Positions 16,457 through 37,564 of a stretch of DNA of 64,000 nt are shown here, piece by piece. Location: NCBI RefSeq assembly GCF_056746865.1, contig NZ_CM163382.1. The stretch is one strand, 5' to 3'. The notes below the pieces were generated by a model. That model was not told where the DNA came from, did no database searches, and worked only from the letters and a program-made list of their open reading frames with translations. Each line of letters begins with the position of its first letter. Within the stretch, counting starts at the first letter, position 1. Both the position numbers and the translations under genes were made by a program.

Positions 16457-18874
16457 TTAAATGGAGAAGTCTTCTCTATCTTTAGATAGGTTTGGACTGT
16501 AGAAGGGATCGAGTTCGAGATGTTTACCCCATTTGCTTTTCATAAAGTTCACTTCCCTGGCAAATCTGGCTATTTTCTCCGGGGAATCTTCGGCACCTCG
16601 ACTAATTGATTCATAGTGGTAAAGCTCGGCATAAGGCGTCCAGAGATTACGGTACCCCGCTTCGCGTACTTTCAGACAGAAGTCCACATCATTAAAAGCA
16701 ACATGCAAATTCTCTTCATCCAACCCGGCAACTTCCTCATAAATATTTTTGCGAATAAGCAGGCAAGCAGCCGTGACGGCCGAGAGAGTTTGTGTCAACA
16801 ACAAACGGCTGAAATAACCCGGATGATGGCGAGGGTACTGTTTATGAGAGTGTCCCGCTACACCACCAATACCGAGAATAACTCCGCCATGTTGTAAAGT
16901 ATCATTACTGTAATAGAGCTTGGCCCCGACACAACCAATCTCTGGTCGCATGCAGTGACTCACCATCTCGGTCAGCCAATCCGGGTTGATTACCTCGACA
17001 TCATTATTGACCAAGCCGATAATGGCCCCCTTGGCGTGACGAACGCCAAAGTTGTTGATGGCCGAGTAGTTAAAGGGGTGGTCATAGCGCAATACTCTGA
17101 CCCGGCTGTCTTCCTGCTGGATCTGGGCAAAGAAATCGAGAGTCTCCTGCTCCACGCTGCCATTATCGAGAATCAGGATCTCGAAATGGGTATAGGTACT
17201 GCGATCGATGATGCTACGCACCGCAGTTTCGGTTAGAGCACGACGATCCCGAGTAGGAATAAGCAAACTAACCAGTGGGGCTGGTTCTGAAATAGGGTAA
17301 CGTACCCGATAGGTGTTGGGAACCAACCCCGCCTCAACCGTAACCTCAGGTTGCTGCTTAGAAAAATAGTCGCGTAGCGCTTTGATGCCAGCCTCCGTGG
17401 TGTAGCTCTTCTCGCCAGAAGCCAAAGCTGTAGAGCCCTCAATGGTACGCCAGTGGTAAAGCACACGGGGAATGTGAACTATCTGCTCTGCAGCTACATG
17501 AGGCAGACAACGCAGCAGCAGATCCTGATCCTGACTTCCTTCTACTCCCAAACGGAATCCCCCAATCTGTTGCAGCAGAGAGCGACGATAGACCCCGAGA
17601 TGCGAGACATAGTTTTGCGAAAAGAATAAATCTGGATTCCAATCGCTCTTGAAATGAGGATCAAAACGCTCACCGCGGGCATTAATTTTATCTTCGTCAC
17701 TGTAAAGGATCTGGGTATGAGGCTGCTCACAAATAGCCTGAGCCATAAATAGCATAGCATGCTCTGGCAACACATCATCATGATCCAACAGAGCTACGAA
17801 ATCCCCTTTTGCAATTTCGAGAGCACTGTTGGAAGCAGCCGAAATATGACCATTGTGCTTTCGGTAGACAACTTTGATTCGGCTATCCTTGGCCTCGTAT
17901 TCGCGCAGTACGCGTTGCACATGTTCTTTTGGCGAACGATCATCGGCAATACAGAGTTCCCAATGGGGATAGCTTTGAGCCAGGACAGAATCCAGACAGG
18001 CACGCAAGTAGATCTCCGCTGGATTATAAACAGGAATCACAATAGATATAACTGGAGGGTGAGTCATACTGGCAAGCATCAGACTCACCTCTTTGTTGCC
18101 AGGCAACGAAGGTAATTCCACCGTTTCTATCCATTCCTCATAACCGACAGAAAACGGGGTAACGCTGAACGTTTCGTTATAGAATGCCTGCAGGCGCTCT
18201 ATTGACATATCGCCATTGTCCATCAATATGGATTTTTTGATTTTTTCTAGCGGCATGTCACGATAGCTTTGGTGTTCTTTTTGAATGCGAGCCAATAGTG
18301 CAGACTCAACTACTTTCACATCAACAGCTGCTATTTCAAACTGATTAATTGCAAATGTTGCTGCCTGTTCTAATGGATCAAATCGTAATGCAACAAGAGG
18401 CGATTCCAGATAGAACAAACGACTGACGCTGACCGCTCGTTTATATGGCAACGTTACTGTTTCAAACTCATTGAACCCTTTACCTGTATCCAAATATAAC
18501 TTAGCTAATCCTTGCTTTGGTTGGCAATTAATAGAGATATTAAATTGATACCATCCCTTGCTAATATTTGAGAGCTGCTCCAAATCAATAATGAAAAATG
18601 GATCATTTCCCTCTGCAACCCAACTTTGTGAATTATCTATATCTATCGAGAGCTGATTTGTTGCCAGATAGGGCAGCACAACTGTATTTTGCATTTTACT
18701 CACTGCAGGAGAAACGTCCCATGCTTCGCATGGTTTCCTACCGAGTAACATCCCATAACGCTTAAAATGTTCTCTTGCTGACAACCCGGTCTGTTTCACA
18801 TCCAAATAGTTATGCAGATACCAATGTTCATCAAAGTGAGCTAGCAACTCGTCTTGGTGATTTTTAACCATCAC
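16457..18874 (-). CDS. dual-domain GT2 glycosyltransferase, candidate capsule polymerase
   Basis: 805 aa with two GT2 cores (ISIVIPVYNP...LLDHDDVL and VSLLIPTRDR...ILDNGSVEQE...NYSAINN...LVNNDVEV). N-terminal HWYLHNYLDVKQTGLSAREHFKRYG motif. Strong RBS (AGGGAG) before the start. Confidence 0.7.
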   Translation of the reverse strand: MMVKNHQDELLAHFDEHWYLHNYLDVKQTGLSAREHFKRYGMLLGRKPCEAWDVSPAVSKMQNTVVLPYLATNQLSIDIDNSQSWVAEGNDPFFIIDLEQLSNISKGWYQFNISINCQPKQGLAKLYLDTGKGFNEFETVTLPYKRAVSVSRLFYLESPLVALRFDPLEQAATFAINQFEIAAVDVKVVESALLARIQKEHQSYRDMPLEKIKKSILMDNGDMSIERLQAFYNETFSVTPFSVGYEEWIETVELPSLPGNKEVSLMLASMTHPPVISIVIPVYNPAEIYLRACLDSVLAQSYPHWELCIADDRSPKEHVQRVLREYEAKDSRIKVVYRKHNGHISAASNSALEIAKGDFVALLDHDDVLPEHAMLFMAQAICEQPHTQILYSDEDKINARGERFDPHFKSDWNPDLFFSQNYVSHLGVYRRSLLQQIGGFRLGVEGSQDQDLLLRCLPHVAAEQIVHIPRVLYHWRTIEGSTALASGEKSYTTEAGIKALRDYFSKQQPEVTVEAGLVPNTYRVRYPISEPAPLVSLLIPTRDRRALTETAVRSIIDRSTYTHFEILILDNGSVEQETLDFFAQIQQEDSRVRVLRYDHPFNYSAINNFGVRHAKGAIIGLVNNDVEVINPDWLTEMVSHCMRPEIGCVGAKLYYSNDTLQHGGVILGIGGVAGHSHKQYPRHHPGYFSRLLLTQTLSAVTAACLLIRKNIYEEVAGLDEENLHVAFNDVDFCLKVREAGYRNLWTPYAELYHYESISRGAEDSPEKIARFAREVNFMKSKWGKHLELDPFYSPNLSKDREDFSI

Positions 18875-18876
18875 TT

Positions 18877-21606
18877 TTATTCTCCCTTATTGACAGGCAG
18901 GCAACTGCGCTGCTCAAACTTCCCATACATAATGTAATGAAGCAGCGGATTAATGCCTCCTTGGGCCACATCCGGATAGGCTTGCAAATACCAGCGAGTA
19001 TCAAACTGCTCACTAGGGCTATAACCTTTATCCGCCCCCACGCTAATAAAATGCTCAAGAGCTGAGAGCCCAGTGTCTGCAACCTCTGGGTAGCGATGTT
19101 GATACCAGAGTTCATCAAACAATCCTGAAGCGGCAATACGCTCCGCGGCACTCTCTGTAGCTGTTGTTCTGGATGGAGTCTCCTTAAATGTTCTGCCAAG
19201 AGCACGAACTGGGGCTGTAATCTTCCAAGAGACGGTTCTCTTCAAATTCTGAGCGCGTTCTTTTGCTCTATTCAATTGCCGCTCTTTTTGTTTTAACTCA
19301 CAGCTAAGCTGCTCCATATGCCGCGTCATGACTGCCAACTCCTGGAAACGCTCTGCAATATTAGCTTCCAACCTTCCGTTGAGTGTGGTTAGTTCTCTTA
19401 CCTGGTCTTGCAGTACAGACTGCTGGCTCTGCAGCAAGGTTTGTTCCCGGATTAAGGCCTCCTTCTCTTCTTTCCAGGCTTGCTGCTGAGCTCTATATGT
19501 TTCATTGGTCTGTTGTTGTTCACTTGCTGCGCTAAGGAGTGCCTGATCACGTTCTTCCAGCCAACGGGTTAAGGTTGCAATCTCGCTGTACCGCTCATTG
19601 AGCACCGATTCCAACTCATCAAGTTGATGTTGCTTTTCTTTTGCTGCTGAGAGCAATGCAGACTGGGCCTGCTGAAGCGACTCTTGCTCAGCCCTTAACT
19701 GCTGCTCTACGCCAGACAACTTGGTGGTAATCAATTGTTTTTCAATCTCTAGTTCAGTGATAATCTGCTTGTGCTCTTCTAATAGACGTGTTAGAGCTAC
19801 CGTTTCACTAAAACGCTCGGCTAATGCCAAGTCCCGTTCGCTAATCTGTTGCTGATGTGTGGTCTGTTCAACTGCCAGTTGTTGTTGTAATGCTGATAGC
19901 GCCTCTGTGAGTTGCTTATACTCTGCTTGTTGAGCAGCCATTACGTCGCTTTGTGACGCAATATTAGACTCGCGCACTGCTATTAGTTGAGTCAGTTCAT
20001 CACATTGTTTAGAAGCCGCAGCCAAAGCAAGAGTTTGCTCATCTATGCTTTGCTGCAATGTTTGTTGCACAAGTTGCCCTTCTTCCAACTGTTGCTGTAG
20101 ATTTGCACTTACCTTTTTCAGTGCATCATATTCCAAGCCTAACGTATCGTGCTGTGCTTCCAGTAATCCATAAGCATGCTGCAACTGGTTTTTAGTTTGC
20201 TGCTCACCGTCAAGCTGCTGCTGCAATGCATTAGCCTGCTGTTGCAACAAGTTCACCATATTGTCTCGCTCGGCCAGTGTACGAACCTGTGTATCCTGGA
20301 CATGTAGCGCTTGTTCCAACTGAAGCTGTAATTCGGTAATTTGCCGCGAATGTTCGCTCAATGCTCTGTTACTCTTGCTGAGCGCGAGAGTAAGGTGAGA
20401 TGCACGCTGTGTTTCTTCACTCAATTGTAACGTCAGGGTATTGACCTGTTGCTCCAGTTGATGGCGAGCTTGCTCCTGGCTCGTGATGCGACTCTGTTGC
20501 TGCTCTAGTTGATGCAGAGCTGTATGCAACTCATCGTTGGCTTGTATTCGCTCCTGCGACCATACACTCAAGTTTGTTTGGGCCTCATTGAGCTGTTCTT
20601 GCAATAATGCCACCTCAGATGTCAGCGAATTGATATGTTGCTGGGCAAAAGATAGCTCATCAGATTGCACTTGAGCATGTGCAAGCTGCTTTTCCATTTC
20701 TAATATGCTGTTATGTTGTGCAGTAATGCGCTCGGCAAGACGCCCTCTTTCCAATGCCTGCTGTTCTACCAATAGCTGCCGTTCAGCCTGAATGTCATCT
20801 TGTTGTGTAGACAACTGACGTTTTAACAGGGAATTCTCCCAACTCTCGCTACAAGATTTCCCCAAACGACAAAAGATGTCTTGGACTTGTTTGGTTACAC
20901 GAGCATTTTCTGAGATTTTATACAAATTATTAAGTTCTGGAGATTGTTCACACCCCACACCAACTATCCCTAGTCCATGCCCATGAGCGAACTCAAAGTG
21001 TGGATATTGTCGTTTTAATTCATCCAAAAGCTGAAATACGCCAAAACCACGTTCCCTAACATTGGTATCATGCATAATGACCACAGCCCTTTCAGAAAGC
21101 TTTGGCAACCAGCTTTCAAAATCATGGCGTACCGCTTCGAACGTATGCAAACCATCAATATGAAGCAGATCAATGCTACCTTGTGAAAAATGCTCTAACG
21201 CTTGGTCAAATGTACTGCGAATGAGAGTAGAAAAACCTGAATAGTGCTGTTGATTATATTCTGATACTTGCCTGTAAACTTCTTCGCCATACAGCCCCGC
21301 ATGTTCATCTCCCCCCCAGGTATCAACGGCAAAGCAGCATGTTTCTAAATCTAGTTTAGAGACTGCCTGGCAGAATGAGAAATAAGAACTTCCATAATGA
21401 GTTCCCAGCTCAACAATATTTCTTGGCCGCAGTGTGTCAACTAACCAGAAAGCAAAAGGAATATGTTCTAGCCAAGCAGATTGTGCAAGATATGTAGGAC
21501 GCCAAAAAAGAGATGATTTGAAAATGAAATTCAATTCCCCGCCAATATCAGTGATGGGATATAACTCACGATTTTCTACTAACTGACTAATTTTTTGACT
21601 ATCCAT
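18877..21606 (-). CDS. class I SAM-dependent methyltransferase-like domain fused to a ~550-aa coiled coil and C-terminal WY repeats
   Basis: 909 aa. N-terminus has NIVELGTHYGSS...LLHIDGLHTFEAV...VIMHDT (Methyltransf_24-like). Residues ~255-810 are Q/E/L-rich heptad-like sequence with three ER[FY]xE[IL]A..TR..EE repeats. C-terminus has two W-Y-x3-Y-P-[ED]-V-A...G...H[FY] repeats. Confidence 0.65.
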   Translation of the reverse strand: MDSQKISQLVENRELYPITDIGGELNFIFKSSLFWRPTYLAQSAWLEHIPFAFWLVDTLRPRNIVELGTHYGSSYFSFCQAVSKLDLETCCFAVDTWGGDEHAGLYGEEVYRQVSEYNQQHYSGFSTLIRSTFDQALEHFSQGSIDLLHIDGLHTFEAVRHDFESWLPKLSERAVVIMHDTNVRERGFGVFQLLDELKRQYPHFEFAHGHGLGIVGVGCEQSPELNNLYKISENARVTKQVQDIFCRLGKSCSESWENSLLKRQLSTQQDDIQAERQLLVEQQALERGRLAERITAQHNSILEMEKQLAHAQVQSDELSFAQQHINSLTSEVALLQEQLNEAQTNLSVWSQERIQANDELHTALHQLEQQQSRITSQEQARHQLEQQVNTLTLQLSEETQRASHLTLALSKSNRALSEHSRQITELQLQLEQALHVQDTQVRTLAERDNMVNLLQQQANALQQQLDGEQQTKNQLQHAYGLLEAQHDTLGLEYDALKKVSANLQQQLEEGQLVQQTLQQSIDEQTLALAAASKQCDELTQLIAVRESNIASQSDVMAAQQAEYKQLTEALSALQQQLAVEQTTHQQQISERDLALAERFSETVALTRLLEEHKQIITELEIEKQLITTKLSGVEQQLRAEQESLQQAQSALLSAAKEKQHQLDELESVLNERYSEIATLTRWLEERDQALLSAASEQQQTNETYRAQQQAWKEEKEALIREQTLLQSQQSVLQDQVRELTTLNGRLEANIAERFQELAVMTRHMEQLSCELKQKERQLNRAKERAQNLKRTVSWKITAPVRALGRTFKETPSRTTATESAAERIAASGLFDELWYQHRYPEVADTGLSALEHFISVGADKGYSPSEQFDTRWYLQAYPDVAQGGINPLLHYIMYGKFEQRSCLPVNKGE

Positions 21607-21746: not shown

Positions 21747-23006
21747 TCAATCCTGGTGCTCACGCAAAGTTGCCAGCCCCATAATAATAAGACCATAGAA
21801 CAAGCAAAGTAATACACCCACAGTCGCAAGATTATAGAATCGCCGTGGATATTCGGCATCTTCCGCTAAAGTTGGTTGGGTAATAACCAATAGGTGCTTA
21901 AGTTTACGATATGCCTCAACCCGCGTCTGCTCTAAGCTGATAAGGCCAGTTTTGTAGAGATCCGCTGCCAAGGTTGCCTGCGTTTGCACATCCATGTAAC
22001 CGGCGGTGATTTCATTCATGGCATCGTTATCTTGACCAGTCAGCTTAGCACGCTCCTGTTCAAGCTGCTTGGTTAGGGCGTCAACTCGGCTCTGTAATGA
22101 GACTACGGCCGGTGCGGTTTCCTTCATATAGCTGCGCAGTTGTTTTAGCTCCGCCTGTTGACGCACCAGCTCTCCTTCAATCTGGCTGACCACTCCTAAG
22201 CGTGCGCTGCTGGTAGATTCAGGGCTGAGAAGTTGGTGGCTATTCTGAAATGCTAATACTTTAGCTTTTTCATCCTGTAAGCGTTGATATGCTCTATTTA
22301 CTTCTTTTTCAACAAAGGCCAATTGTTCGAGCGCAACCTGATGACCTAATTTGTTAATAAAACGCTCCGATTCTTTGAGCATTAACTCAACAACTCGCTG
22401 ACCGTATTGGGGATCAAATGTCTGCAACTCAACGGTAAGTACTCCTGATAATTCATCAAGATGTAACGTCAAATGTTTGCGGTAATAATCAAGAAAATCC
22501 TCCCTACTGACTCCCTTATGCAACCGCGAGAAATAATCTGCACTATCACTCTGGAAATGTGCTTTAAGTGCAAGTTCTTTGTCCAACTTGGCCAGCATAT
22601 CCCATGACTTCATATAATCCTGAACGAGTAATATATCCTGATGATTACTACCACCGATCCCTAACATTGATAACGCATCAGGCAACATTTTAACTTGATC
22701 GGCTTGTTTAATCATTAATTCAGCCCGGCTCACATAACGATCGGAAGCAATGAAGCCAAAATAGAGCACTGCGATAGAAAAGCAGATAACTACCCAAAGA
22801 AAACTGCCTAGCTGTAAACTTTTCTTCCACGAGCGGTGTACAATTTGATATCCTCTCGAATCAATCAAAAATAGTTTTGGATTATTGCTCAGTTTTCTTA
22901 ACTTTCGCGCAAGGCGAGATATTGAGGATGAAGAATTCGGAGATGTCATAATCAGTTGCTGCTCAAAGTGACTGGTAAATTTTGATGGCATCATCAATAT
23001 TATCAA
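21747..23006 (-). CDS. kpsE: KpsE-like capsule export inner-membrane protein (Wzz/PCP-3 type)
   Basis: 419-aa track ORF with one N-terminal transmembrane segment, a long periplasmic coiled region and a C-terminal TM (GVLLCLFYGLIIMGLATL). Track start overlaps kpsT by 44 nt; a start at the internal Met (22949) is more likely. Confidence 0.7.
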   Translation of the reverse strand: MIILMMPSKFTSHFEQQLIMTSPNSSSSISRLARKLRKLSNNPKLFLIDSRGYQIVHRSWKKSLQLGSFLWVVICFSIAVLYFGFIASDRYVSRAELMIKQADQVKMLPDALSMLGIGGSNHQDILLVQDYMKSWDMLAKLDKELALKAHFQSDSADYFSRLHKGVSREDFLDYYRKHLTLHLDELSGVLTVELQTFDPQYGQRVVELMLKESERFINKLGHQVALEQLAFVEKEVNRAYQRLQDEKAKVLAFQNSHQLLSPESTSSARLGVVSQIEGELVRQQAELKQLRSYMKETAPAVVSLQSRVDALTKQLEQERAKLTGQDNDAMNEITAGYMDVQTQATLAADLYKTGLISLEQTRVEAYRKLKHLLVITQPTLAEDAEYPRRFYNLATVGVLLCLFYGLIIMGLATLREHQD

Positions 23007-23613
23007 AAACTTCTAATTTACCATCACGTAACAAGATGCCCATATCGCATTGTTGTCGTAGATTTTTCATATCATGTGAAACCATAATCAAACTAGCTGT
23101 TTCTCGCTTTTTGTTAAATACATCAATACATTTTTGTTTAAAACGTGCATCACCTACTGAGGTAATTTCATCGGTAAGATATATATCAAAATCAAAAGCC
23201 ATACTAACAGCAAAAGAAAATTTTGATTTCATGCCGCTAGAGTATGTTTTAATAGGCAACTCATAATGTTGTCCAATTTCAGAAAACTCTTTAACCCACT
23301 CTTCTACGGTGCTTGTATCGCGTACACCATGAATGCGGCAAACAAATCGCGTGTTTTCACGACCAGTCATACTACCTTGAAATCCCCCACCTAGTGCTAG
23401 AGGCCAAGATACTCGGCAGAGACGAGTTACTTTCCCCCTGTTAGGCGTATCCATCCCTCCTAACAAACGTAACAAAGTAGATTTTCCTGCTCCATTGATA
23501 CCTAGAATACCTATATTACGGTCCCTTGGTAGCTCAATATTTACATTCCTCAGGACATAATTTCGTCCAAATTTAGTCGGATAATATTTTGATACATTAT
23601 CAAGAATAATCAT
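22963..23613 (-). CDS. kpsT: capsule ABC transporter ATP-binding protein
   Basis: 216 aa, Walker A GINGAGKSTLL, ABC signature region. Adjacent to the ABC-2 permease. Confidence 0.85.
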   Translation of the reverse strand: MIILDNVSKYYPTKFGRNYVLRNVNIELPRDRNIGILGINGAGKSTLLRLLGGMDTPNRGKVTRLCRVSWPLALGGGFQGSMTGRENTRFVCRIHGVRDTSTVEEWVKEFSEIGQHYELPIKTYSSGMKSKFSFAVSMAFDFDIYLTDEITSVGDARFKQKCIDVFNKKRETASLIMVSHDMKNLRQQCDMGILLRDGKLEVFDNIDDAIKIYQSL

Positions 23614-23624
23614 TTTTCTTAACG

Positions 23625-24425
23625 CTAACTAGCAATCAATTGGCGATGCCGTAATCGGTAACAACTCATAGCAAAAGTGAGCAATAATAAGGTGACAACC
23701 GACAGATACGCCCAACTTACATCAGGACTACGATAACCAGATATCCATGCCCTTCGGATTAGTTCTACAGCATGCACAAGTGGATTCCATAAAAACCAAT
23801 GCTGATATTGAGGGGGAATAGTAGCAAGAGGAAACATAACACAAGAGATAAACATCAAAGGCATCATTAACAAGCTAAGAAATTTATCTGCCTCTTTCGC
23901 TAAGTTACAAATAACACAAAATACAATACCAAGAGAAAAAGAAAACAGCATCAGAAGAGAATAACCAAGGATCACTTGCAATGGATCCGCAGGTATTGCA
24001 TCAAAGCCAAACCACAATAATCCTAGTACTAGGATGATACCGACAATCATGCCCACCATTGTTTCTAGCATAAAACGTGCTATAAAAGTTGCAAAAGGAG
24101 TCACTTGTCTATAACAAAAAAGTCCCATATTAGCATTGACAGCAGATTTCAACTGAGTCACAACTTTATTGAAAAACATGAAAGGTAAATAACCAGCAGT
24201 AATAAAAACCTGGGCTGGGACACCACCAAAGCCACTTTGGCTTCTCATCCCAAATACTACACTGAACAGGCTAATCATTAATAATGGGTCAAGTAATGCC
24301 CAAGCATAACCTAGTCGGTAATTACCAAATCTTGTTTTTAGCTCACGAATTAATAAGCCAAATACTACATCACGTAATACTTGCAAAGAAGTGCGTGGAG
24401 TTTGACTAATAATGGGTTTGTCCAT
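23625..24425 (-). CDS. kpsM: capsule ABC transporter permease (ABC-2 family)
   Basis: 266 aa, six predicted TM helices, ABC-2 type. Immediately upstream of kpsT. Confidence 0.8.
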   Translation of the reverse strand: MDKPIISQTPRTSLQVLRDVVFGLLIRELKTRFGNYRLGYAWALLDPLLMISLFSVVFGMRSQSGFGGVPAQVFITAGYLPFMFFNKVVTQLKSAVNANMGLFCYRQVTPFATFIARFMLETMVGMIVGIILVLGLLWFGFDAIPADPLQVILGYSLLMLFSFSLGIVFCVICNLAKEADKFLSLLMMPLMFISCVMFPLATIPPQYQHWFLWNPLVHAVELIRRAWISGYRSPDVSWAYLSVVTLLLLTFAMSCYRLRHRQLIAS

Positions 24426-24491
24426 TAATACTTACCCAAATAATCGGCTCATTATAGCAACGAGCCTCCGATTAAAATTTAAAACACTCAA

Positions 24492-26237
24492 TCATTTAAT
24501 AGCAACGTTAGCAGCTACAGCGATTTGATAAATAATTTGTGTGATATCTTTAAATGATTGCATGGTTTTGCTATCAACCTGAGGTAGAACCAATATCTGA
24601 TCCCCCGGTTGTACTTTACCTTGCCCTTTAAATTCTACAAGACCATTTGCATGTACAATAGCAATTCGCTTGTCGTTAGCTCGCTCAGTAAAACCTCCGG
24701 CCCATGCAACATAATCATCCAAATTAGCATCGGCATTATATACTACTGCTTGTGGCATCAACACTTCACCACCCACTTGAATAAGATCAGTCTTATTTGG
24801 AATAACTATTTGATCGCCTTGTTCTAATTGGATATTGGCAATAACACCTTTATCTGCAACTACTACTTTACCAAGCGGTTGAACTTTACGAGCCTTTTCA
24901 ACAAACTGCATCACTAACTCTGCTTCTTTAGCACGTATATTCGCCTCACCATCAGATCGCGCGGGTGTGGTAAATACACTACGTTCCAAGCGGTTTAGAG
25001 ATTCATCCAGCATCTCTTTTTGTCTTGCAGCCACACTCTTTCGTATCAGATAAATTGATTGATAATCCGCAAGCTCTGGGTCAATAGGGATATAGTTCAA
25101 TAAATCATGCAATTTAGTTTGCTTACGAACCGTGAAATATGACGGTCCCATATAACTGCCTGATACTTGTATATCATATACTTGTGCATGCATGTCATCA
25201 TTAAAAAGTACTTTGTCACCGTCTTTAAGTTGAAGACGTGTAAAATCTTTATACGGCAAGTAGACGGAAAACGGGCCGCTTTCCCTGTCGCCAATCACAC
25301 CGACATGACTGACTTTTGCGAGAGGAAGTGCATAATTCACCAATTCAGAGCCTAATGCATTGCGCTGGGTAAGCTCAAATCGGAATGGGTTTCGAACCTT
25401 TCCCGCAACATTGATCATTGGACCTTGTTGCTCAACTAAAATCACATCTTGATCTTTTAATGCCAGCTTCGGGAGTTTCCCATACCGTATGAAATCATAA
25501 AGATCAATTTGCTGTATTACTCTATTTTGTCGTAACACCTTAATTTTTCGATAACTTCCACGGTCAGAATCTATTCCACCGGCACGTTTTAAAAAATACA
25601 ATATACTATCAGAAGATTGTCCTGCATACTGCCCAGGACGAATTACAGGCCCCGTAACGAATACACTTACAGGGGTTGCAGTCAAAAGATTTACGTAAGT
25701 ATTTACATTATTGGTAAATACATCACCGATCTTACTTGCCACCAACTGATTAACTTGGCTTGCAGGAACATTTTTTACATTTATTGGACCTACATCAGGT
25801 ATGAAAATATTTCCTTGATTATCTACCGTAACCACATTAGAGAAATTGACCGCTCCCCAAATCCAGATATTTAACTTATCCCCAGGAGCAATCAAATAAT
25901 TATCGCTTAAGCCGTCACTCCTTTCTGTTTCATAGCCTCCGGCAAATAAATTAGCACCATACGGAGGAGGTAAGCCTGCTTCAGATTGCGGCAGTAATTT
26001 TCGTACATCTGACTCTCCTGGAAGCAACATCCCATTACGATTCTGTTGTGTGAAGCTTCCTGTTGTGGAGGTTGTATTAGGCTGTCCAGTGATGTCTGCT
26101 AGCATTTTCCGAGACTCTCCTGTCGAGGCAGCAAGATCATAATCTAAATGTGAACCATTAGATTGATTTTGCTCTATTGCGGCGAATGCTGATGCAGAAA
26201 TAAGAAAGAGAAGAGTGCTAAGTTGCGAAATTTTCAT
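24492..26237 (-). CDS. kpsD: KpsD-like periplasmic/outer-membrane capsule export protein
   Basis: 581 aa with signal peptide (MKISQLSTLLFLISASAFA). Central region resembles KpsD (GDKLNIWIWGA...GNIFIPDVGPINV...VFVTGPVIRPGQY...RGSY). Confidence 0.75.
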   Translation of the reverse strand: MKISQLSTLLFLISASAFAAIEQNQSNGSHLDYDLAASTGESRKMLADITGQPNTTSTTGSFTQQNRNGMLLPGESDVRKLLPQSEAGLPPPYGANLFAGGYETERSDGLSDNYLIAPGDKLNIWIWGAVNFSNVVTVDNQGNIFIPDVGPINVKNVPASQVNQLVASKIGDVFTNNVNTYVNLLTATPVSVFVTGPVIRPGQYAGQSSDSILYFLKRAGGIDSDRGSYRKIKVLRQNRVIQQIDLYDFIRYGKLPKLALKDQDVILVEQQGPMINVAGKVRNPFRFELTQRNALGSELVNYALPLAKVSHVGVIGDRESGPFSVYLPYKDFTRLQLKDGDKVLFNDDMHAQVYDIQVSGSYMGPSYFTVRKQTKLHDLLNYIPIDPELADYQSIYLIRKSVAARQKEMLDESLNRLERSVFTTPARSDGEANIRAKEAELVMQFVEKARKVQPLGKVVVADKGVIANIQLEQGDQIVIPNKTDLIQVGGEVLMPQAVVYNADANLDDYVAWAGGFTERANDKRIAIVHANGLVEFKGQGKVQPGDQILVLPQVDSKTMQSFKDITQIIYQIAVAANVAIK

Positions 26238-28062: not shown

Positions 28063-28599
28063 TTACCCCCGTCCAAACTCCAGCCGCTGCACGTTCACCA
28101 TTCCAGCCTTTTCATCTGCACTGACATCAATTTGTGTCACCCGCAGCGCATACTTTTCATCCAGCGCGTTTAACCAGTTCAGCAGATCATTAAATACCAC
28201 AGGATCTATCCAGACCTGGATATTCTCCCCGCGCTCGGCTATCCGCTTAATGACCACTGAATGCGCCGAAGCACTGTCACTGATGACCCGCGATACCTGC
28301 GCAGGCGTTGTTGTGGCAGATTTTCGCGCTGCAATAATATCCGGCGCGGCGTTCTTCAGTCGGGTGTTCATCGCCACCAGCTGCTGCAATATTGTCTCCT
28401 GTTGCTCAATCCGTTCGCTCAACGGCTGCCAGATGAGGACGTAATATCCGACGCTAAACAGGAACACCACCGCTGCCAGTAACATGCCCTTTTCACGCGG
28501 AGAACGCCCCGCCAGGTGTTGTGCCAGCCAGTGTTCGCCACGGCTTAACTGGCGTTCACGCCATTGCTGAAAATAGTGAATAAATTTATCGCGTAACAT
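28063..28599 (-). CDS. gspM: type II secretion system protein M
   Basis: 178 aa, single N-terminal TM. Last gene of a colinear gspC-M run. Confidence 0.8.
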   Translation of the reverse strand: MLRDKFIHYFQQWRERQLSRGEHWLAQHLAGRSPREKGMLLAAVVFLFSVGYYVLIWQPLSERIEQQETILQQLVAMNTRLKNAAPDIIAARKSATTTPAQVSRVISDSASAHSVVIKRIAERGENIQVWIDPVVFNDLLNWLNALDEKYALRVTQIDVSADEKAGMVNVQRLEFGRG

Positions 28600-28600
28600 G

Positions 28601-29779
28601 TTATTTCCTCCGCAACGTTACGCCGCCGGAAACCGCATCACCCTCTTTCTGTAACGCGTCCTGTTGCACAACATAATCTGCCGCCAGTGCGCTACGCAGT
28701 TTGTCGAAGCTGGCAAAGTTCGCAGCCCGTAGCTGAAGGTGAAGCGTCTGGCGTTTTTGATCAAAGTTGAAACCACGCATTTCGATGTCGGAAAGTGACG
28801 CTGATTTCAGGGCACTGGCGATCGCTGACAATTCTGCGAGCAGCCGGGTATCGTCGGCCTGTGGGCGATATTTTTTCAGCGCCATCGTCACCTGAGAGCG
28901 TAAATTCACAATCCGCTTCTGCTCCGGGAATAGCGTTAAGAACTGTTTCTCCGCCTGGGTGCGGCTTTGCGCCACCTGTTCGCTGACGCTCCATAACGTC
29001 ACGCCCCGTTCCACTACCAGCGCAACCAGAATCAGCAATACCGGCAGAATCATCACCCGCCAGCGCGCCCACTGTTTTCGGTAGCTGACACGAGGCTGCC
29101 ACGGCCCTGTTAGCAGGTTCCCTTTCGGTTCGCCATAAGTGGTAATGGCGGGCAGAGCCGTAACGGTCAGGCGTTCGGCGTCCGCACCAGCCCATGCAGA
29201 CAGTTCTTCCGGTGCAATGCCGACCACAGTTAGTGAAATCGGTAAATCCTGCTCATTGAGCTGTGCGCGGAACATGGCCGGAGCCAGCGCCCGCCCGGCG
29301 CTCCATCCCCGGCATTCATCGATGCGGCAGATAACCCGTTGCGCATCGCCAGCCATAAACCCACAAGGAATAGACATCCAGTCCGGCGCGACGGTAGCGC
29401 GGGTGATGCCGTTTGCCTGCAACCATTGCGCAATGTTGCGCATATGCTGCTGGTGAATCACAGCTACGGTTGCCAGTTGCTGGTCGATTTTCAACGGGGC
29501 GAAATGCAGTTCATCGATATCCTGGTTCAGCTCTTCTTCCAGCAAGGCGGGCAGAATCGTCGGTATCTGCTTGCGGGGCACATCAGGCAGTTCAACCTGC
29601 CAGACGCTGATCCATTCGCCGGGAATGTAGAGTCGAATCGCATCAGTTTGCAGCCATTGCTGGAGACGTTCGTCAGCAACGTCAGGCCAGATACCGTGCT
29701 CCACGTCGGGTGTATGGCGCTGCCAACGGATGGGATCAGCGGCGCAAAGCGGGAAAAAAATCTCAAGCATGGAACTCAC
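28601..29779 (-). CDS. gspL: type II secretion system protein L
   Basis: 392 aa, cytoplasmic domain plus one TM (VMILPVLLILVALVV). Position between gspK and gspM. Confidence 0.78.
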   Translation of the reverse strand: MSSMLEIFFPLCAADPIRWQRHTPDVEHGIWPDVADERLQQWLQTDAIRLYIPGEWISVWQVELPDVPRKQIPTILPALLEEELNQDIDELHFAPLKIDQQLATVAVIHQQHMRNIAQWLQANGITRATVAPDWMSIPCGFMAGDAQRVICRIDECRGWSAGRALAPAMFRAQLNEQDLPISLTVVGIAPEELSAWAGADAERLTVTALPAITTYGEPKGNLLTGPWQPRVSYRKQWARWRVMILPVLLILVALVVERGVTLWSVSEQVAQSRTQAEKQFLTLFPEQKRIVNLRSQVTMALKKYRPQADDTRLLAELSAIASALKSASLSDIEMRGFNFDQKRQTLHLQLRAANFASFDKLRSALAADYVVQQDALQKEGDAVSGGVTLRRK

Positions 29780-29784
29780 TCACT

Positions 29785-30753
29785 TTATCCTGTCTGATGC
29801 CAGAGAACAGAAAAGTGTTGTGGGCCCATGCGGACAATTAACGAATTCATCGTCAGTTCAATCTCATTCACGGTGATATCTGAACGCAGCCAGAAGTAAT
29901 TGCTGTCCACGCTCAGGACGGTTTTTAGCTGTTTTTTAGTACGCTCATCGACGTCTGCAAGTAGCGGCTGAGCAAGAAATTGATCGACATCTTCCCAGCC
30001 CTTCGCCGGACGTTGTTGTAATAACGCCCGCGCCTGAACAGGGCTTAACCACGGGTCAAACAGCGCCTCAAGAATCACACTTTGCGTGACATCTAATGTA
30101 TTGATGTTGATTTGCTGGCGGGCCATCGGCAGCGCACAGACCAACGGTTTCAGTTTTTGATAAAGCCCGGCGTCCATTCCCTGTACCACGCGCATTTCGC
30201 TGATATCCGCCAGCGGTTGATTAGTGGCGTAGAACGGCACCGAGCGGGCGAGATACTCGCTGTCTTCACGACCCAGTCGCGTCTGCACGCTGCGGTCTTC
30301 GTCAATAAACTCCCACAGGCTTTCGGCTATCAGTTCGGCCCGATAAGCAGGCACATCAAGGCGCGAGATCAGGGCAATCAGTTGTTGTACCGCGAGCGGA
30401 CGCGACGCCGTCGTCGGCTGAGCGAGGGCATTCAGGTTAAAGCAGGCCTGTGCGTCACGCAGAGTGACGGCAATTTGCCCCTGCGGCAGTGGGAAAAAAC
30501 GCGGGCCAGAAGCCCACGGTTGTGCCAGATGCACACGCTTTTCATTTTTCAGGCTCAGACTGAGCGCGCTCAGCGCCAGGCTTTCTGCACTGGCGCTGTA
30601 CCACAGCGCCTGCTGGTACTCCTGCTGGCTGCGCGTTCGCCCAAGTTGCTGCTGCATCCGACTGGAAAGCGTGATGGTCACCAGCATCATAACCGCCAGC
30701 AATACCAGCACCACGACCAGTGCCATTCCGCGTTTTGGTGGTGAGGTGATCAT
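29785..30753 (-). CDS. gspK: type II secretion minor pseudopilin K
   Basis: 322 aa, N-terminal GMALVVVLVLLAVMML hydrophobic segment. Synteny. Confidence 0.82.
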   Translation of the reverse strand: MITSPPKRGMALVVVLVLLAVMMLVTITLSSRMQQQLGRTRSQQEYQQALWYSASAESLALSALSLSLKNEKRVHLAQPWASGPRFFPLPQGQIAVTLRDAQACFNLNALAQPTTASRPLAVQQLIALISRLDVPAYRAELIAESLWEFIDEDRSVQTRLGREDSEYLARSVPFYATNQPLADISEMRVVQGMDAGLYQKLKPLVCALPMARQQININTLDVTQSVILEALFDPWLSPVQARALLQQRPAKGWEDVDQFLAQPLLADVDERTKKQLKTVLSVDSNYFWLRSDITVNEIELTMNSLIVRMGPQHFSVLWHQTG

Positions 30754-31355
30754 GATAATTGCGGCCCACGTAACAACCAGATGCGTTCAATCTCGCCCCA
30801 TTGCGGCGAATGCAGAGTCATGCGCACCGCCACAGGGATCGCCTGCCCTGACGACCAACTCGCCTGCCAGCGCGTGCCGTCGTAGAACTGCAAACGGAGC
30901 GAATCCGCCGGAATTAATTTTTGCGTTGTTGGCTTCACGCTGCCCGCTGCATCGGTCAGCGGCCAGGCTAACCGTTCAAGGTAACCGTCATGAATGCGGT
31001 AACCGACAGTGAGCAGATTACTGCGCGGCAGGCGCATCAACGGATTAACCACGCCGCCACGCACAAAGCGCATCCCTTCACTCTCAGACGCCAGCACGCC
31101 AGCGCCCGCCAGTAACGCTGGTTCACGCTGGCCCTGATCGCCTCTTACCGGACGCGGCATCATTTGTGTCAGATCGTGGTTCAAAAAACTCATCGTTTGC
31201 TGCATGAGGTTTAGTTTTTGATCGTGTCCGGCGACGGCGCTATTCACGCGTGTAACGCCGTTTGTCACCTGCTGCGCCATCAGTGCCAGTGAGGCAAAAA
31301 TGGCTATCGCCACCAGCATTTCCAGTAACGTGAAACCAGTGCGAGCCCTTCTCAC
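30750..31355 (-). CDS. gspJ: type II secretion minor pseudopilin J
   Basis: 201 aa, prepilin-type N-terminus GFTLLEMLVAIAIF. Confidence 0.85.
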   Translation of the reverse strand: MRRARTGFTLLEMLVAIAIFASLALMAQQVTNGVTRVNSAVAGHDQKLNLMQQTMSFLNHDLTQMMPRPVRGDQGQREPALLAGAGVLASESEGMRFVRGGVVNPLMRLPRSNLLTVGYRIHDGYLERLAWPLTDAAGSVKPTTQKLIPADSLRLQFYDGTRWQASWSSGQAIPVAVRMTLHSPQWGEIERIWLLRGPQLS

Positions 31356-31723
31356 TGTTGGCCTCCCACGGCGCTAAACCAGGCGCGTCGTGACTGAATC
31401 ACTGGCGAAAAGTCGTCATGAAGACTGACTTCAATATCCACCGCCTGGAGCAGCACGTTACCGGTATTCAGAGGGATCGTTCGCCAGTACCAGCGGCTTC
31501 CTGCCATATCACTCTCGCCCTGGTGCCTGACCGCTCGTTGTTCACGGGTCATCAGGTAAAGCAGCGCAGTCTGGTTTTCAGCTACCCAGCCCGCTACCGT
31601 TTTCTCCTCAAGAACCTGCTGATTGTTTAGCGCGCCGCTGGCGATCTGTAATACCGCCGTGGCAGCCAGCGCAAAAATCGCCAGTGCGATCATCACTTCC
31701 AGCAAGGTAAATCCGCGCTTCAT
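31352..31723 (-). CDS. gspI: type II secretion minor pseudopilin I
   Basis: 123 aa, MKRGFTLLEVMIALAIF prepilin leader. Confidence 0.85.
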   Translation of the reverse strand: MKRGFTLLEVMIALAIFALAATAVLQIASGALNNQQVLEEKTVAGWVAENQTALLYLMTREQRAVRHQGESDMAGSRWYWRTIPLNTGNVLLQAVDIEVSLHDDFSPVIQSRRAWFSAVGGQQ

Positions 31724-32283
31724 GGCACCCTCTCATCACATTGATTGAGGGATAACGCGCCATCGTGCGCCAGTTTTACCGCCCAACATGCGTTTTGCGC
31801 CGCCGAATAAAATCGCAGCGTAAACGGCGTGGCGGGTTCAAAAGGCGAAAAACGGATCTGCGGTGTCTTCTTTTTCGCCTCTTTTTGCAGCTCCAGTTCA
31901 ATATCATGCAGCGTCAGGCGACGACGTTGCATCTCCAGCGCATACTCCTTCTGCCAGATATCACTGCCGGGTTGTAACAGCATCTGCACCTGTTTCGGCA
32001 CCGTAACCTGTGCCGATAACCGGGTCGCAGAAACGGGCAACCATTGCCCGTGACGACGCTGCATAAACTGGTAACCTGGCGGGTCGATTAGCACACCGAG
32101 TGTTTGCCCTTCGATCACTGCCCTGTCCTTAAACTGCGCAAAGCGAGTCAGAAAATCCTGCGCCGCTTTTTTCGCAGGCGGCTCTGAAGCGGTCGCAAAC
32201 GTCTGTACCACGCCCGCACTGGCAAGGCCGATAAGGAAAATCACCAGCATGATTTCCAGAAGTGTGAATCCGCGTTCAGGCAC
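31720..32283 (-). CDS. gspH: type II secretion minor pseudopilin H
   Basis: 187 aa, RGFTLLEIMLVIFLIG prepilin leader. Confidence 0.85.
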   Translation of the reverse strand: MPERGFTLLEIMLVIFLIGLASAGVVQTFATASEPPAKKAAQDFLTRFAQFKDRAVIEGQTLGVLIDPPGYQFMQRRHGQWLPVSATRLSAQVTVPKQVQMLLQPGSDIWQKEYALEMQRRRLTLHDIELELQKEAKKKTPQIRFSPFEPATPFTLRFYSAAQNACWAVKLAHDGALSLNQCDERVP

Positions 32284-32286
32284 TGA

Positions 32287-32742
32287 TTACTGAAACTCCT
32301 GCAAATTCCAGTTACCGATATCTGCGCCAGCGCCCTCCCCGTTTTCCTGACCATCTGCTCCCAGGGTATAAACATCAAACAGCCCTTTTTCACCTGGGCT
32401 GAGATACTGATAATCATTGCCCCACGGATCCTTTGGCAGTCGTTTGATGTATCCACCGGTACGGTAGTTGCGGGCGTCCGCCATATTGGCTGGCTGCTGG
32501 ATCAGCGCCTCCAGTCCCTGTTCGGTGGTCGGATAACGCCCGTTATCCAGTCGGTACATATCCAGCGCATTCTCCAGCGCCACGATATCGCTGATGGCTT
32601 TTTGCCGATCGGCTTTCTCTTTGTTGCCCAGCAGGTTAGGCACCACCAGACTTGCCAGGACGCCAAGAATAACAATCACCACCATCACTTCCAGCAGGGT
32701 AAAACCTGCCCGTGGTTTTTGTGTGCGGGATAACGAATTCAT
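32287..32742 (-). CDS. gspG: type II secretion major pseudopilin G
   Basis: AGFTLLEVMVVIVILGVLASLVVPN prepilin N-terminus. Start set at the internal ATG (32740-32742), which has a GGAG RBS and avoids overlap with gspF. Confidence 0.85.
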   Translation of the reverse strand: MNSLSRTQKPRAGFTLLEVMVVIVILGVLASLVVPNLLGNKEKADRQKAISDIVALENALDMYRLDNGRYPTTEQGLEALIQQPANMADARNYRTGGYIKRLPKDPWGNDYQYLSPGEKGLFDVYTLGADGQENGEGAGADIGNWNLQEFQ

Positions 32743-32758
32743 GTGATAACTCCGTAAA

Positions 32759-33982
32759 TTACATTCCAACCATATTGTTCAGTTGCAGCATCGGTTCGAG
32801 GATGGCGATGACGATAAACAGCACCACACCCGCCATCATCACCACCAGCGCCGGCTCAAACAGCCCTAACGCCAGCCCCACCTGGGTATCAAATTCCCGT
32901 TCCTGGTTGACCGCGGCCTGTTCAAGCATGGTTTCCAGCTCGCCGCTCTGTTCGCCGGAGGCGATCATGTACAGCATCATCGGTGGAAACAGGTGCAACT
33001 CCGCCAGCGCGGCGCGCAGGCTGCTTCCTTCGCGGACGCGATCTGCCGCCAGCAGCAGTTGTTGTTCGACATAGCGATTTGCCGACACGGCGGCGGCGGT
33101 CTGAATGCCTTCCAGCAGCGGAACACTGCTGGCGGTGAGGATGCTTAATGTGCGGGAAAAACGCGCCGTATTCAGTCCGCGCGCAACACGCCCCGTCACG
33201 GGCAGGCGCAGCAAGGTTTTATCCCAGCGCAGGCGCATCGCAGGATTTTTGAGTAGCCGTTGCCCCAGCACCAGAAGCCCCAGCAAACCCGCCAGCCAGT
33301 ACACGCCGCTGGCCTGTAACGCGTCGCTCATAGCGATGAGCATTCGGGTGGAGGCGGGTAGCGCGTGTCCGAGATGATCAAACTGTTCGATAATTTTCGG
33401 CACCACTGCCGTCAGCAAAATAGTGACTACGCCCGTTGCCACCACCAGCAGAACCAGCGGATAGAGCATGGCCTGCAGCAGGCGTGATTTCAGACGCTGC
33501 CGCTGTTCGGTGTAATCCGCCAGGCGATTGAGCACCACGTCGAGATGTCCGGATTTTTCTCCGGCAGCGACCATCGAACAAAACAGGGAGTCAAAGACGC
33601 GGGGATGTTCGCGCAGGCTGTCCGACAGGGTATAACCTTCCTGAATCCGGCTGCGCAGCGCCATTCCGAGGCTTTTTACATGCAGTTTTTCGCTTTGCTC
33701 ACTGACCGCCTGTAAGCAGGTTTCCAGCGGCATTGCTGCCTGCACCAGCGTTGCCAGTTGACGAGTGAACAGCGCCAGATCTGCTGCCGCCACGCGACGA
33801 TGTGCGTGCCGCCGACGCTGCAACATTCCCCCTGCCGATGCATTCATCCGGGCTTCAATGTGCACGGGAATGAGGTCTTTACCGCGCAACAATTGACGGG
33901 CATGACGCGCGGAATCCGCCTCAATCATGCCTTTGGTTTTGCGACCATTACGCTCCAGCGCCTGATAGTAAAACAGTGCCAT
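32759..33982 (-). CDS. gspF: type II secretion inner-membrane platform protein F
   Basis: 407 aa, GspF/PilC-type polytopic protein. Synteny. Confidence 0.88.
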   Translation of the reverse strand: MALFYYQALERNGRKTKGMIEADSARHARQLLRGKDLIPVHIEARMNASAGGMLQRRRHAHRRVAAADLALFTRQLATLVQAAMPLETCLQAVSEQSEKLHVKSLGMALRSRIQEGYTLSDSLREHPRVFDSLFCSMVAAGEKSGHLDVVLNRLADYTEQRQRLKSRLLQAMLYPLVLLVVATGVVTILLTAVVPKIIEQFDHLGHALPASTRMLIAMSDALQASGVYWLAGLLGLLVLGQRLLKNPAMRLRWDKTLLRLPVTGRVARGLNTARFSRTLSILTASSVPLLEGIQTAAAVSANRYVEQQLLLAADRVREGSSLRAALAELHLFPPMMLYMIASGEQSGELETMLEQAAVNQEREFDTQVGLALGLFEPALVVMMAGVVLFIVIAILEPMLQLNNMVGM

Positions 33983-35475
33983 TACGCCTCCATGGTTACC
34001 CGCAGAACTTCATCGAGAGAGGTTTCTCCGGCGAGCACTTTCTCAATGCCGTTACTGCGGATACCCGCAGAGTGTTGCCGGACATAACGTTCCAGCTCCA
34101 GTTCCCCGGCCTGACGGTGGATCAAATCACGCAATGTGGCGTCTACCACGATCAGCTCATGGATGGCAGTACGTCCGCGAAAACCTTTGTGATTACAGGC
34201 GGGGCAGCCCTGCGGATGGTACAGCGTGACGGTTCGCGCATCGGTAATTCCCAGCAGGCGTTTTTCTTCGTCGGTGGCAGGCGCGGACTGGCGGCAATCG
34301 GGACACAGCGTGCGAACCAGTCGCTGCGCCATCACGCCCGTCAGACTGGAAGAGAGCAGGAAAGGCTCCACGCCCATATCCTGCAAACGCGTGATCGCCC
34401 CCACCGCTGTGTTGGTATGCAGCGTGGAAAGTACCAGGTGTCCGGTCAGTGAAGCCTGAACAGCGATTTCTGCGGTTTCGGTATCGCGGATTTCACCGAC
34501 CATCACCACATCCGGGTCCTGACGCAAAATTGCGCGCAGGCCACGGGCGAATGTCATGCCGACGCGGGTGTTAACCTGCGTCTGACCGATCCCGTCAATC
34601 ATGTATTCGATAGGGTCTTCAACCGTGAGAATGTTACGCGAGTGGTTGTTCAGCTCCTGCAATCCAGCGTACAGCGTGGTGCTTTTGCCGGAACCGGTCG
34701 GCCCCGTCACCAGAAAAATGCCGTGCGGTTTGTGTAACAGCTGGCGCAACTGCGCAGTCAGTTCGTGACTCAAACCAAGACGCTCCAGCGTCAGGCGAGC
34801 CTGGTTTTTGTCCAGCAGTCGCAGCACCACGCGTTCCCCCCAGGCAGAAGGCATGGTAGATACACGGACGTCAATCGCCCGACCGCCCAGCAGCAGCGCA
34901 ATACGGCCATCCTGCGGTACGCGCTTTTCGGCGATATCCAGTCGCGCCATCACCTTGATACGCGAGACCAGCAGCGAGGCCAGTTTACGACCGGGGCGCA
35001 ACATTTCATGTAATGTGCCGTCAACACGAAAACGGATCACCAGACTCTTTTCAAACGTCTCAATGTGGATATCCGAAGCGCCTTCTTTGATTGCCTCTGC
35101 CAGCATGGCGTTGATCAGTTTGATGATCGGCGCATCGTCGTCACTTTCCAGCAGATCTTCCGTTTCCGGCAGTTCTTCAGCGAGGGTAAAAAAGTCCTCG
35201 GCGGAACCGAGATCTTCCATCAGCTGGCGAGCTTCGGAAGAGTCCCGCTGCCAGACCGCATTCAGCCGCTGTTCAAATTCAGCCTCGTCGATTTGCCGCA
35301 GTGTAAAGGGCGCATTCAGCCCCCGCTGTAGCTCCTGTAAAACAGAGAGCGACAACGGATGAACATGGAGGATCTCCAGCGACGCTTCGCACCATGCCAC
35401 CAGGCTAAACCGACGGCTGAAACTGTAGGGCAGACGCACGGTGTTAGCGGTGGTTTCCTGTGCTACAGGCACCAT
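33982..35475 (-). CDS. gspE: type II secretion ATPase E
   Basis: 497 aa, Walker [11 protein letters not shown]-terminal CxxC...CxxC zinc motif (CPDC...CPAC). Confidence 0.92.
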
Positions 35476-37535: not shown

Positions 37536-37564
37536 GATGAATGATTCTCCTGGATTAAATGCGG

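Follow-up and report, generated by a model that had tools for sequence, protein, structure and literature searches.

The 64,000-nucleotide (nt) stretch analysed here (the window; contig NZ_CM163382.1 of NCBI RefSeq assembly GCF_056746865.1) holds an Escherichia coli kpsDMTE capsule locus, as judged from gene order and from the RefSeq annotation of the copy in strain PF9285, one of the E. coli chromosomes with 99.8% identity to the region. Two adjacent genes of this locus encode a 909-amino-acid (aa) protein with a methyltransferase (MT) domain and a long coiled coil, and an 805-aa protein with two glycosyltransferase (GT) family 2 (GT2) domains, and copies of one short module stand on the facing termini of the two products. 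The best-supported reading is that these modules are the junction element of a terminator-on-ruler and a polymerase, covalent in fused relatives and, most likely, non-covalent in the window. That the two termini are functionally coupled is well supported by comparison with related loci and with natural fusions.

The module on two facing protein termini

The features of the two genes are given below with their positions in the window, where (-) marks the minus strand.

18877-21606 (-), open reading frame (ORF) of 909 aa: N-terminal class I S-adenosylmethionine (SAM) methyltransferase, long coiled coil and two-module C-terminal tail
20812-21606 (-), methyltransferase region, residues 1-265, resembling the N-termini of fused and split relatives (E=1e-33 to 8e-88)
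19222-20799 (-), coiled-coil region, about residues 270-795 (~530 aa), drawn by a composition heuristic as 252-479 and 481-798
19204-19230 (-), SWKITAPVR motif, residues 793-801, of the form S-W-[KR]-x-T-x-P-[LV]-R, between coiled coil and modules
19015-19128 (-), tail module R1, residues 827-864, SGLFDELWYQHRYPEVADTGLSALEHFISVGADKGYSP, from a hidden Markov model (HMM), BLASTP and AlphaFold2 (predicted local distance difference test score, pLDDT, >90; three short helices)
18895-19014 (-), tail module R2, residues 865-904, SEQFDTRWYLQAYPDVAQGGINPLLHYIMYGKFEQRSCLP, from HMM, BLASTP and AlphaFold2
18869-18888 (-), gene junction: AAGGGAG (18882-18888) within the last codons of the 909-aa ORF, stop codon TAA (18877-18879) and a 2-nt spacer
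16457-18874 (-), 805-aa putative polymerase with a GTG start: module, unannotated domain, GT2a and GT2b
18728-18847 (-), GT N-terminal module, residues 10-49 of the 805-aa protein, LLAHFDEHWYLHNYLDVKQTGLSAREHFKRYGMLLGRKPC, from HMM and BLASTP, with pLDDT 93-96 in a co-fold
18080-18712 (-), unannotated stretch of ~210 aa, residues 55-265, between module and GT2a
17564-18046 (-), GT2a, residues 277-437, Glycos_transf_2
16733-17269 (-), GT2b, residues 536-714, Glycos_transf_2

A preliminary description of this DNA had noticed a motif of ~30 aa that occurs twice at the C-terminus of the 909-aa protein and once at the N-terminus of the next product. BLASTP and an independent HMM bear out this placement, while the unit measures ~38-40 aa and reads F-D-x2-W-Y-x3-Y-x-[DE]-V-x3-G-x5-H-[FY]-x3-G-x(6-7)-P, with nine columns invariant across the three copies. 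The span given for it, 18725-19104, takes in all three modules except for the first 8 residues of R1. Compared with the 909-aa protein by BLASTP, the GT N-terminus matched R1 at E=2e-10 (53% identity over 40 aa) and R2 at E=2e-6. The HMM was built from 129 two-module segments, all taken from proteins unrelated to those of the window. Searched against all six-frame pieces of the window, it found the tail of the 909-aa protein (E=2.4e-29) and the GT N-terminus (E=1.9e-8), with the next best piece at E=0.09. Thus, a module profile from outside the window's own protein family matches both ORFs, which places them in one 38-aa repeat family. No further copy was found in six frames of the 64-kb window by regular expression or HMM. 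The net charges are -4 and -1 for the tail modules and +2 for the GT module; charge complementarity between tail and GT module was considered on this ground and rejected, as it fails in pairs with a WbsX/RgpF-type GT (hand count).

The domains around the modules also agree with the earlier picture of a coiled-coil protein beside a dual-GT2 protein. Pfam Methyltransf_24 covers residues 65-181 of the 909-aa protein (E=5e-25), followed by coiled-coil-type matches (weakly Fez1/ATG16 in Pfam and SMC-type in NCBIfam), and an E. coli protein named "class I SAM-dependent methyltransferase" is 99% identical to it. In the 805-aa protein, two Glycos_transf_2 domains were found. Residues 55-265 of this protein have no Pfam or NCBIfam match; the stretch is kept in the dual-GT2 neighbours of three related loci (L002, L004 and L007) and is lacking in an Azospirillum fusion, where the modules pass almost straight into GT2a.

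AlphaFold2 modelling of the 93-aa tail, with an alignment of 150 rows, gave a mean pLDDT of 93.8 and a predicted template modelling (pTM) score of 0.84, with three short helices per module and an additional helix before R1. The high pTM means that the two modules are predicted in fixed mutual geometry, and the module itself is predicted to be a rigid three-helix unit. At least 1725 AFDB50 models resemble the tail model in Foldseek at E<=0.001, with template modelling (TM) scores of 0.81-0.98 among the 50 best listed.

The tail is strictly kept among relatives of the 909-aa protein. The homologue set (P0002-P0121) comprises 120 listed proteins of 745-1197 aa with 41-99% identity, from E. coli, Aeromonas, Enterobacter, Leclercia, Citrobacter and Buttiauxella, among other hosts. 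All 120 end in exactly two modules and keep the key residues, down to 41% identity, which indicates selection on the tail itself. The S-W-[KR]-x-T-x-P-[LV]-R motif is likewise present in 120/120 members, invariably 108-119 aa before the C-terminus, and 9 unrelated array proteins have it too, 32-50 aa ahead of their first module. SWKITAPVR could be the real membrane-association or recruitment element. Close homologues differ widely in coiled-coil length, as in Aeromonas proteins of 1096 and 1197 aa and E. coli proteins of 816 aa (the latter on >150 contigs). A coiled coil that sets the chain length of each strain would be expected to vary in this way.

At the junction, the GT gene has two start candidates, GTG at 18874 and ATG at 18871, of which RefSeq annotates the ATG. 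The 2-nt gene spacing recurs in L002, L004 and L007, and the gaps in loci with a WbsX/RgpF-type neighbour are 32-38 nt. The 2-nt spacer together with the Shine-Dalgarno-like AAGGGAG inside the upstream ORF suggests translational coupling, and the two genes are probably coupled in this way.

Covariation of tail and neighbour, and fused relatives

Eleven distinct loci were compared (the window with the near-identical L001; the near-identical pair L002/L003; L004-L010; L012). In all 11, a six-frame HMM search found modules only at the C-terminus of the MT-coiled-coil protein and at the N-terminus of the next product, and none on any other GT of these loci. The neighbours are of several types:

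Window/L001, L002/L003, L004 and L007: dual-GT2 protein with one module
L005, L006, L008 and L009: WbsX/RgpF-type GT of ~722 aa with two modules
L010: multi-GT protein of 1204 aa with three modules
L012: neighbour opening with two modules, on a contig that stops 195 aa in, before its type can be told

The presence of modules on three GT scaffolds points to repeated placement on polymerase N-termini.

Over 10 loci, tail identity and the identity of the first GT module are correlated (Pearson 0.85), whereas the identity of the MT domain is correlated with neither (Pearson 0.04 with the tail and -0.04 with the GT first module). Three pairs of loci illustrate this:

Window and L006: MT domain 97%, tail 56%, GT first module 31%
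L004 and L005: MT domain 95%, tail 60%, GT first module 33%
L009 and L012: MT domain 100%, tail 54%, GT first module 48%

Near-identical MT domains thus carry different tails that match different polymerases, so tail and partner module vary together. The homologue P0006, for example, is 90-100% identical to the window protein at residues 1-750 and ~50% identical over the last 150, and its neighbour is of the WbsX/RgpF type. Even in L010, where the 1204-aa GT is unrelated, a window-type tail faces a "...EHFKRYGxLLGRKPC" module. As judged from these alignments, the tail follows the downstream GT and not the rest of its own protein.

Fused relatives were drawn from the best matches of a repeat profile (described below) and from loci found with a DNA pattern. 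Fourteen proteins among the best repeat-profile matches resemble the window MT domain (E=1e-47 to 5e-85), most of them with a short coiled coil followed by 8-15 modules (~300-570 aa). Two of these, P0242 (2035 aa) and P0200 (1827 aa), run on into two GT2 domains that match GT2a and GT2b of the window (E=1e-31 to 3e-76), and P0178 combines an MT domain (E=3e-82) and 14 modules with a weaker GT2 match. In one further polypeptide, the two proteins of the window are naturally fused:

L034, Azospirillum brasilense BR 11650, ORF 10171-5342 (-), 1610 aa

Its order is MT (E=1e-69), short coiled coil, SSSWRLTAGLRW (a SWRxTA-type motif preceding the modules), exactly three contiguous modules, GT2a (E=3e-68), GT2b and a GT4-like domain. 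P0242, P0200 and L034 share the order MT, short coiled coil, modules and dual GT2, and match the window MT domain at E ~1e-68 to 1e-81. A split form occurs in Salinicola halophilus (L098), with an MT domain (E=1e-33), a long coiled coil and two modules, and a next ORF of one module and then GT2. By these relatives, the window's two proteins correspond to two halves of single enzymes, with the module array exactly at the junction. In the fused relatives, the array and not the coiled coil forms most of the spacer. As L034 comes from a cultured organism, it is useful for experiments.

The repeat family and possible functions of the module

We searched 1.84 billion representative proteins with a profile made from 18 modules. 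It matched 29,824 clusters at E<=1e-3, of which 18,988 also pass E<=1e-10. The best 150 of the 29,824 clusters have 7-24 matched stretches each with a period of 38 aa, and the family consensus is PLFDxxWYLxxNPDVAxxGxNPLxHYLxxGxxEGRxP. From these best 150 matches, 66 array proteins of at most 1200 aa were taken for a domain census, and all accompanying Pfam domains were glycan-related: GT2 in 19, Glyco_trans_1_4 in 19 and Glycos_transf_1 in 8, beside WsaF, RgpF, WbsX, Methyltransf_24, GT61 and pyruvyl transferase. Foldseek partners of the tail model in AFDB50 include GT2, GT1, sulfotransferase and methyltransferase proteins, and di-modules are very common among these matches at the C-termini of coiled-coil proteins labelled "Smc" or "SbcC". 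The preliminary description had allowed that its motif might be a low-information repeat without enrichment in glycan-assembly proteins. The repeat is common, yet far from low-information, and across ~30,000 clusters it stands nearly always beside glycan-assembly domains.

No Pfam-A family and no NCBIfam model covers the repeat, and it matches no TPR, Sel1, HEAT or dockerin family profile or fold. Searches of PDB sequences with module profiles returned nothing or chance CD1 matches (E>0.3), and a full-text literature search by repeat sequence strings returned only irrelevant papers and no description of the element; wider literature searches on the subject gave background papers only. The members of the clusters of 10 array proteins are named only "hypothetical protein".

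A DNA-pattern scan of species-representative genomes found at least 120 loci; the pattern favours near-consensus modules, so that the taxonomic sample is biased. The loci span Alpha-, Beta- and Gammaproteobacteria, Acidobacteria, Planctomycetota, Verrucomicrobia, Actinobacteria, Cyanobacteria, Chlorobi, Myxococcota, Desulfobacterota and Campylobacterales. Many of them are partial, and they hold one module-bearing ORF in 99 cases, two in 18 and three in 3. A C-terminal array followed by modules that open the next gene was considered as a general rule and rejected, as it was seen in only ~9 of the at least 120 loci. In two of these ~9, L014 (2715-9620, +) and L119 (5648-7663, +), pairs of module-bearing ORFs are in frame across a single stop codon by frame arithmetic, with the stop in or beside the module array. 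Each pair may be a fusion that was interrupted, a true split or the product of a sequencing error.

With moderate confidence, we read the repeat as a connector that joins the polymerising GT to the C-terminal end of the coiled-coil methyltransferase, making one polymerase-ruler-terminator machine. The polymerase N-terminal module would pack on the tail di-module in trans, as the modules are predicted to pack in cis, and would so rebuild a short array. Adjacent and probably coupled genes would help this assembly along: on a single mRNA, the C-terminal end of the one protein, made last, would appear together with the N-terminal end of the other, made first. The junction would sit far from the N-terminal catalytic domain of the 909-aa protein, and the methyltransferase would cap chains once these span the coiled coil, by analogy with the WbdD-WbdA system discussed below. 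Docking of the GT module on the tail is the best reading of the comparative evidence, by which the repeat probably joins the two proteins.

Several observations weigh against such docking. The 99 loci with a lone module-bearing ORF, partial as many loci are, mean that the module must also work without a module-bearing partner, and P0186 has 11 C-terminal modules and a downstream GT without any. A single-chain co-fold of the tail, a 30-aa glycine-serine linker and GT residues 1-58 (alignment of 9 true pairs and unpaired block rows) gave a pTM of 0.53, which lies between our own estimates of ~0.46 for an undocked and ~0.63 for a docked chain and comes without predicted aligned error or a control run. 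The co-fold gave a confident GT module (pLDDT 93-96) and a disordered linker. With an N-terminal capping helix of its own and a sequence of the "first-module" type, the GT module does not resemble a plain continuation of R2. Furthermore, SWKITAPVR lies in the same co-inherited block and could be the recruiting element instead, and the co-inheritance of tail and GT could come partly from physical linkage, with crossovers limited to the conserved 5' part of the gene. Linkage alone does not explain why the tail is variable, were it indifferent to the GT. The preliminary description had suggested a docking or oligomerisation element that tethers the polymerase to the putative ruler or terminator; facing placement, covariation and fusions speak for this in the window, while the lone ORFs show a general role wider than such pairing.

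The lone ORFs, for which a partner-independent function must exist, also make it possible, if doubtful, that the modules each bind the same third component; this could be the glycan (nascent or lipid-linked), the export complex of KpsMT and KpsE, or some other scaffold. Arrays of 7-24 modules inside single enzymes would suit a common target of this kind, as would the conserved aromatics F, W, Y, Y, H and Y, which resemble those often found on sugar-binding surfaces (a link by analogy), and a co-fold that is not clearly docked. Most of these aromatics, however, probably form the core of the three-helix unit in the AlphaFold2 model, and modules that are net acidic or neutral (-4, -1 and +2) argue against binding to an anionic membrane. 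A common target would not lead one to expect modules only on the terminator-like protein and the first GT, with none on the other GTs of the same loci, nor does it predict that the subtypes of tail and GT module switch jointly while export genes and MT domain stay near-identical.

It is unlikely that the modules are rigid linkers which serve spacing in the fused enzymes, perhaps as a piece of the ruler, and persist in the window as remnants of an ancestral gene split, with the two proteins, if they associate, touching elsewhere, for example at SWKITAPVR or on the body of the GT. The long arrays between short coiled coil and GT domains in the MT-matching relatives fit this, as do the predicted rigidity of the di-module, the invariant position of SWKITAPVR in the family and the fact that WbdA binds WbdD without any common repeat (PMC11231755). 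Yet a free terminus with one to three modules leaves nothing to be spaced, three unrelated GT scaffolds would need repeated recruitment and not one fission, and the strict conservation of exactly two tail modules and of the key residues in all 120 homologues indicates selection on the tail itself.

A further idea is that the modules make each of the two proteins homo-oligomerise on its own, in parallel uses of a generic unit: on the one they would cap or stabilise the bundle of coiled coils, and on the other they would dimerise the GT. Module-bearing proteins are usually alone in their loci, di-modules are frequent on "Smc"- and "SbcC"-labelled proteins, and C-terminal helices drive trimer formation in WbdD (PMC3482155). 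We consider this quite unlikely, since self-association gives no reason for the covariation of tail and GT-module subtypes or for an array placed exactly between the halves of fused proteins, and long tandem arrays are hard to square with a simple oligomerisation tag. A chance or low-complexity resemblance without biological meaning has a negligible probability and was rejected in view of the BLASTP match (E=2e-10), the independent HMM (2.4e-29 and 1.9e-8 against 0.09), the 29,824 clusters and the confident fold prediction.

The connector reading can be extended, tentatively, to a module that connects and spaces the parts of bacterial polysaccharide assembly lines in general. Arrays would be rigid rods that set the distance between terminator and polymerase, as a ruler beside or instead of the coiled coil, and arrays that are short and lie on separate proteins would pair in trans according to subtype, as a docking code. 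If so, polymerases could be swapped between loci along with a matching tail, and many ABC (ATP-binding cassette)-transporter capsules, those of E. coli group 3 included, would have a chain length controlled by ruler and terminator, contrary to the current view, in which capsules have no terminating residue.

Capsule locus and known systems

Directly upstream of the 909-aa gene lies an export block, which marks an ABC-transporter capsule context:

21747-26237 (-), export block kpsD-M-T-E
24492-26237 (-), kpsD, KpsD-like polysaccharide export match in NCBIfam
23625-24425 (-), kpsM, KpsM-like permease
22963-23613 (-), kpsT, ABC ATPase of 216 aa
21747-23006 (-), kpsE, NCBIfam BexC/CtrB/KpsE TIGR01010, 497 bits, over cutoff

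The RefSeq order of the PF9285 copy starts with gsp type II secretion genes, a polysaccharide export protein, an ABC permease, an ABC ATPase and a "sugar transporter" (KpsE family), and continues with the methyltransferase, the dual-GT2 protein, more GTs, an AlgX-related acetyltransferase, UDP-glucose dehydrogenase and rfbBDA. Group 3 kps capsule loci are laid out in this way, with a conserved kpsD-M-T-E block, serotype-specific genes after it and an adjoining gsp type II secretion operon (gspM-gspG). Neither kpsC nor kpsS was identified among the ORFs scanned with NCBIfam, which include a 715-aa ORF and do not reach the far end of the locus.

Holding the polymerase at a fixed distance from the terminator is the heart of the molecular-ruler model of glycan chain length. 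To our knowledge, the surface that recruits the polymerase has been characterised only for a few O-antigen systems. The module is a small (38 aa), sequence-defined and testable candidate for such a recruitment element, and its natural subtype variants permit swaps.

By its architecture, the 909-aa protein is a putative chain terminator on a ruler, and the ABC-transporter context of the locus is consistent with this. The closest parallel is WbdD-WbdA of the E. coli O8/O9a and Klebsiella O3/O5 O-antigens. Both systems depend on an ABC transporter, which in the window is represented by the permease, the 216-aa ATPase, KpsE and the KpsD-like protein upstream. In both, a methyltransferase-type domain at the N-terminus is followed by an extended coiled coil, and the multi-GT polymerase is a separate protein encoded nearby. 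The MT and coiled-coil architecture of the WbdD/WbdA type is present here (Methyltransf_24 at residues 65-181 and a coiled-coil-like region of ~530 aa), with glycan capping as a putative function suggested by this architecture. WbdD recruits the polymerase WbdA through its C-terminal region (PMC3482155, PMC11231755), which parallels the junction proposed here, although the recruiting element differs: no repeat in common with WbdA is reported for WbdD. The coiled coil here is also much longer.

The 909-aa protein had no match at E<=0.01 in a phmmer search of all PDB chains, a set that should include the WbdD fragments of PMC3482155. ATPases of O-antigen transporters have a C-terminal carbohydrate-binding module that reads the terminal cap, whereas the 216-aa KpsT lacks it; its end-to-end fit to nucleotide-binding-domain models leaves no extra domain. 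Given the lack of detectable sequence similarity to WbdD and of a cap-reading module on the ATPase, the system is not to be filed as a WbdD homologue. A WbdD-like architecture occurs as the first serotype-specific gene of a kpsDMTE locus whose KpsT has no cap-reading domain. The capsule pathway is said to have no chain-terminating residue (PMC11231755), in view of which either this capsule is capped or the 909-aa protein does something else.

Klebsiella O12 WbbB and O7 ORF6 have the order terminator, coiled coil and GT modules, the same as in P0242, P0200 and Azospirillum L034; compared by description only, neither is said to have a 38-aa array between coiled coil and GTs. As in TPR, Sel1 and HEAT proteins, short helical units stand in tandem, here predicted to pack rigidly. 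Dockerin-cohesin pairs and the docking domains of polyketide synthases and nonribosomal peptide synthetases (PKS/NRPS) are likewise small modules at facing termini of consecutive assembly-line enzymes. The best reading of the system is a terminator-polymerase ruler type built on a widespread repeat that Pfam-A, NCBIfam and PDB do not cover.

In the available excerpts of two papers on E. coli group 3 kps clusters, the "putative methyltransferase with coiled-coil region" corresponds to the 909-aa gene. The coiled coil is of variable length in the putative methyltransferase genes of many group 3 clusters (PMC13171606), and a SAM-dependent methyltransferase is the first region-2 gene (PMC10433991). 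Between two group 3 clusters, substitutions concentrate in the last 263 bp of a shared methyltransferase gene (PMC10433991), an independent observation in line with the variable tails described above. These surveys touch on the gene only briefly. The excerpts of PMC13171606 and PMC10433991 make no mention of C-terminal modules, of a matching module on the next GT or of the function of the protein. A pairing of tail and polymerase would explain recombination junctions inside the 3' end of the methyltransferase gene. If tail and polymerase are a matched pair, this bears on the origin of new K-types and on the engineering of polysaccharides of defined length. The control of chain length in group 3 capsules of E. 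coli is not understood, and the module now marks a WbdD-like architecture in their loci.

The 816-aa E. coli homologue (L002/L003) lies inside a compact kpsDMTE cluster, flanked by IS66 and IS1 transposases, that also holds MT-coiled-coil, dual-GT2, NeuB, CTP-transferase and inositol-phosphatase-like genes; the L003 record is 80.5 kb. This setting fits the plasmid-borne group 3 clusters of PMC10433991. Beyond the capsule locus of the window lie an ORF of 1528 aa (40025-44611, -) and a series of ORFs that match the gsp type II secretion operon (28063-38524, -), with the gsp annotation taken from L001.

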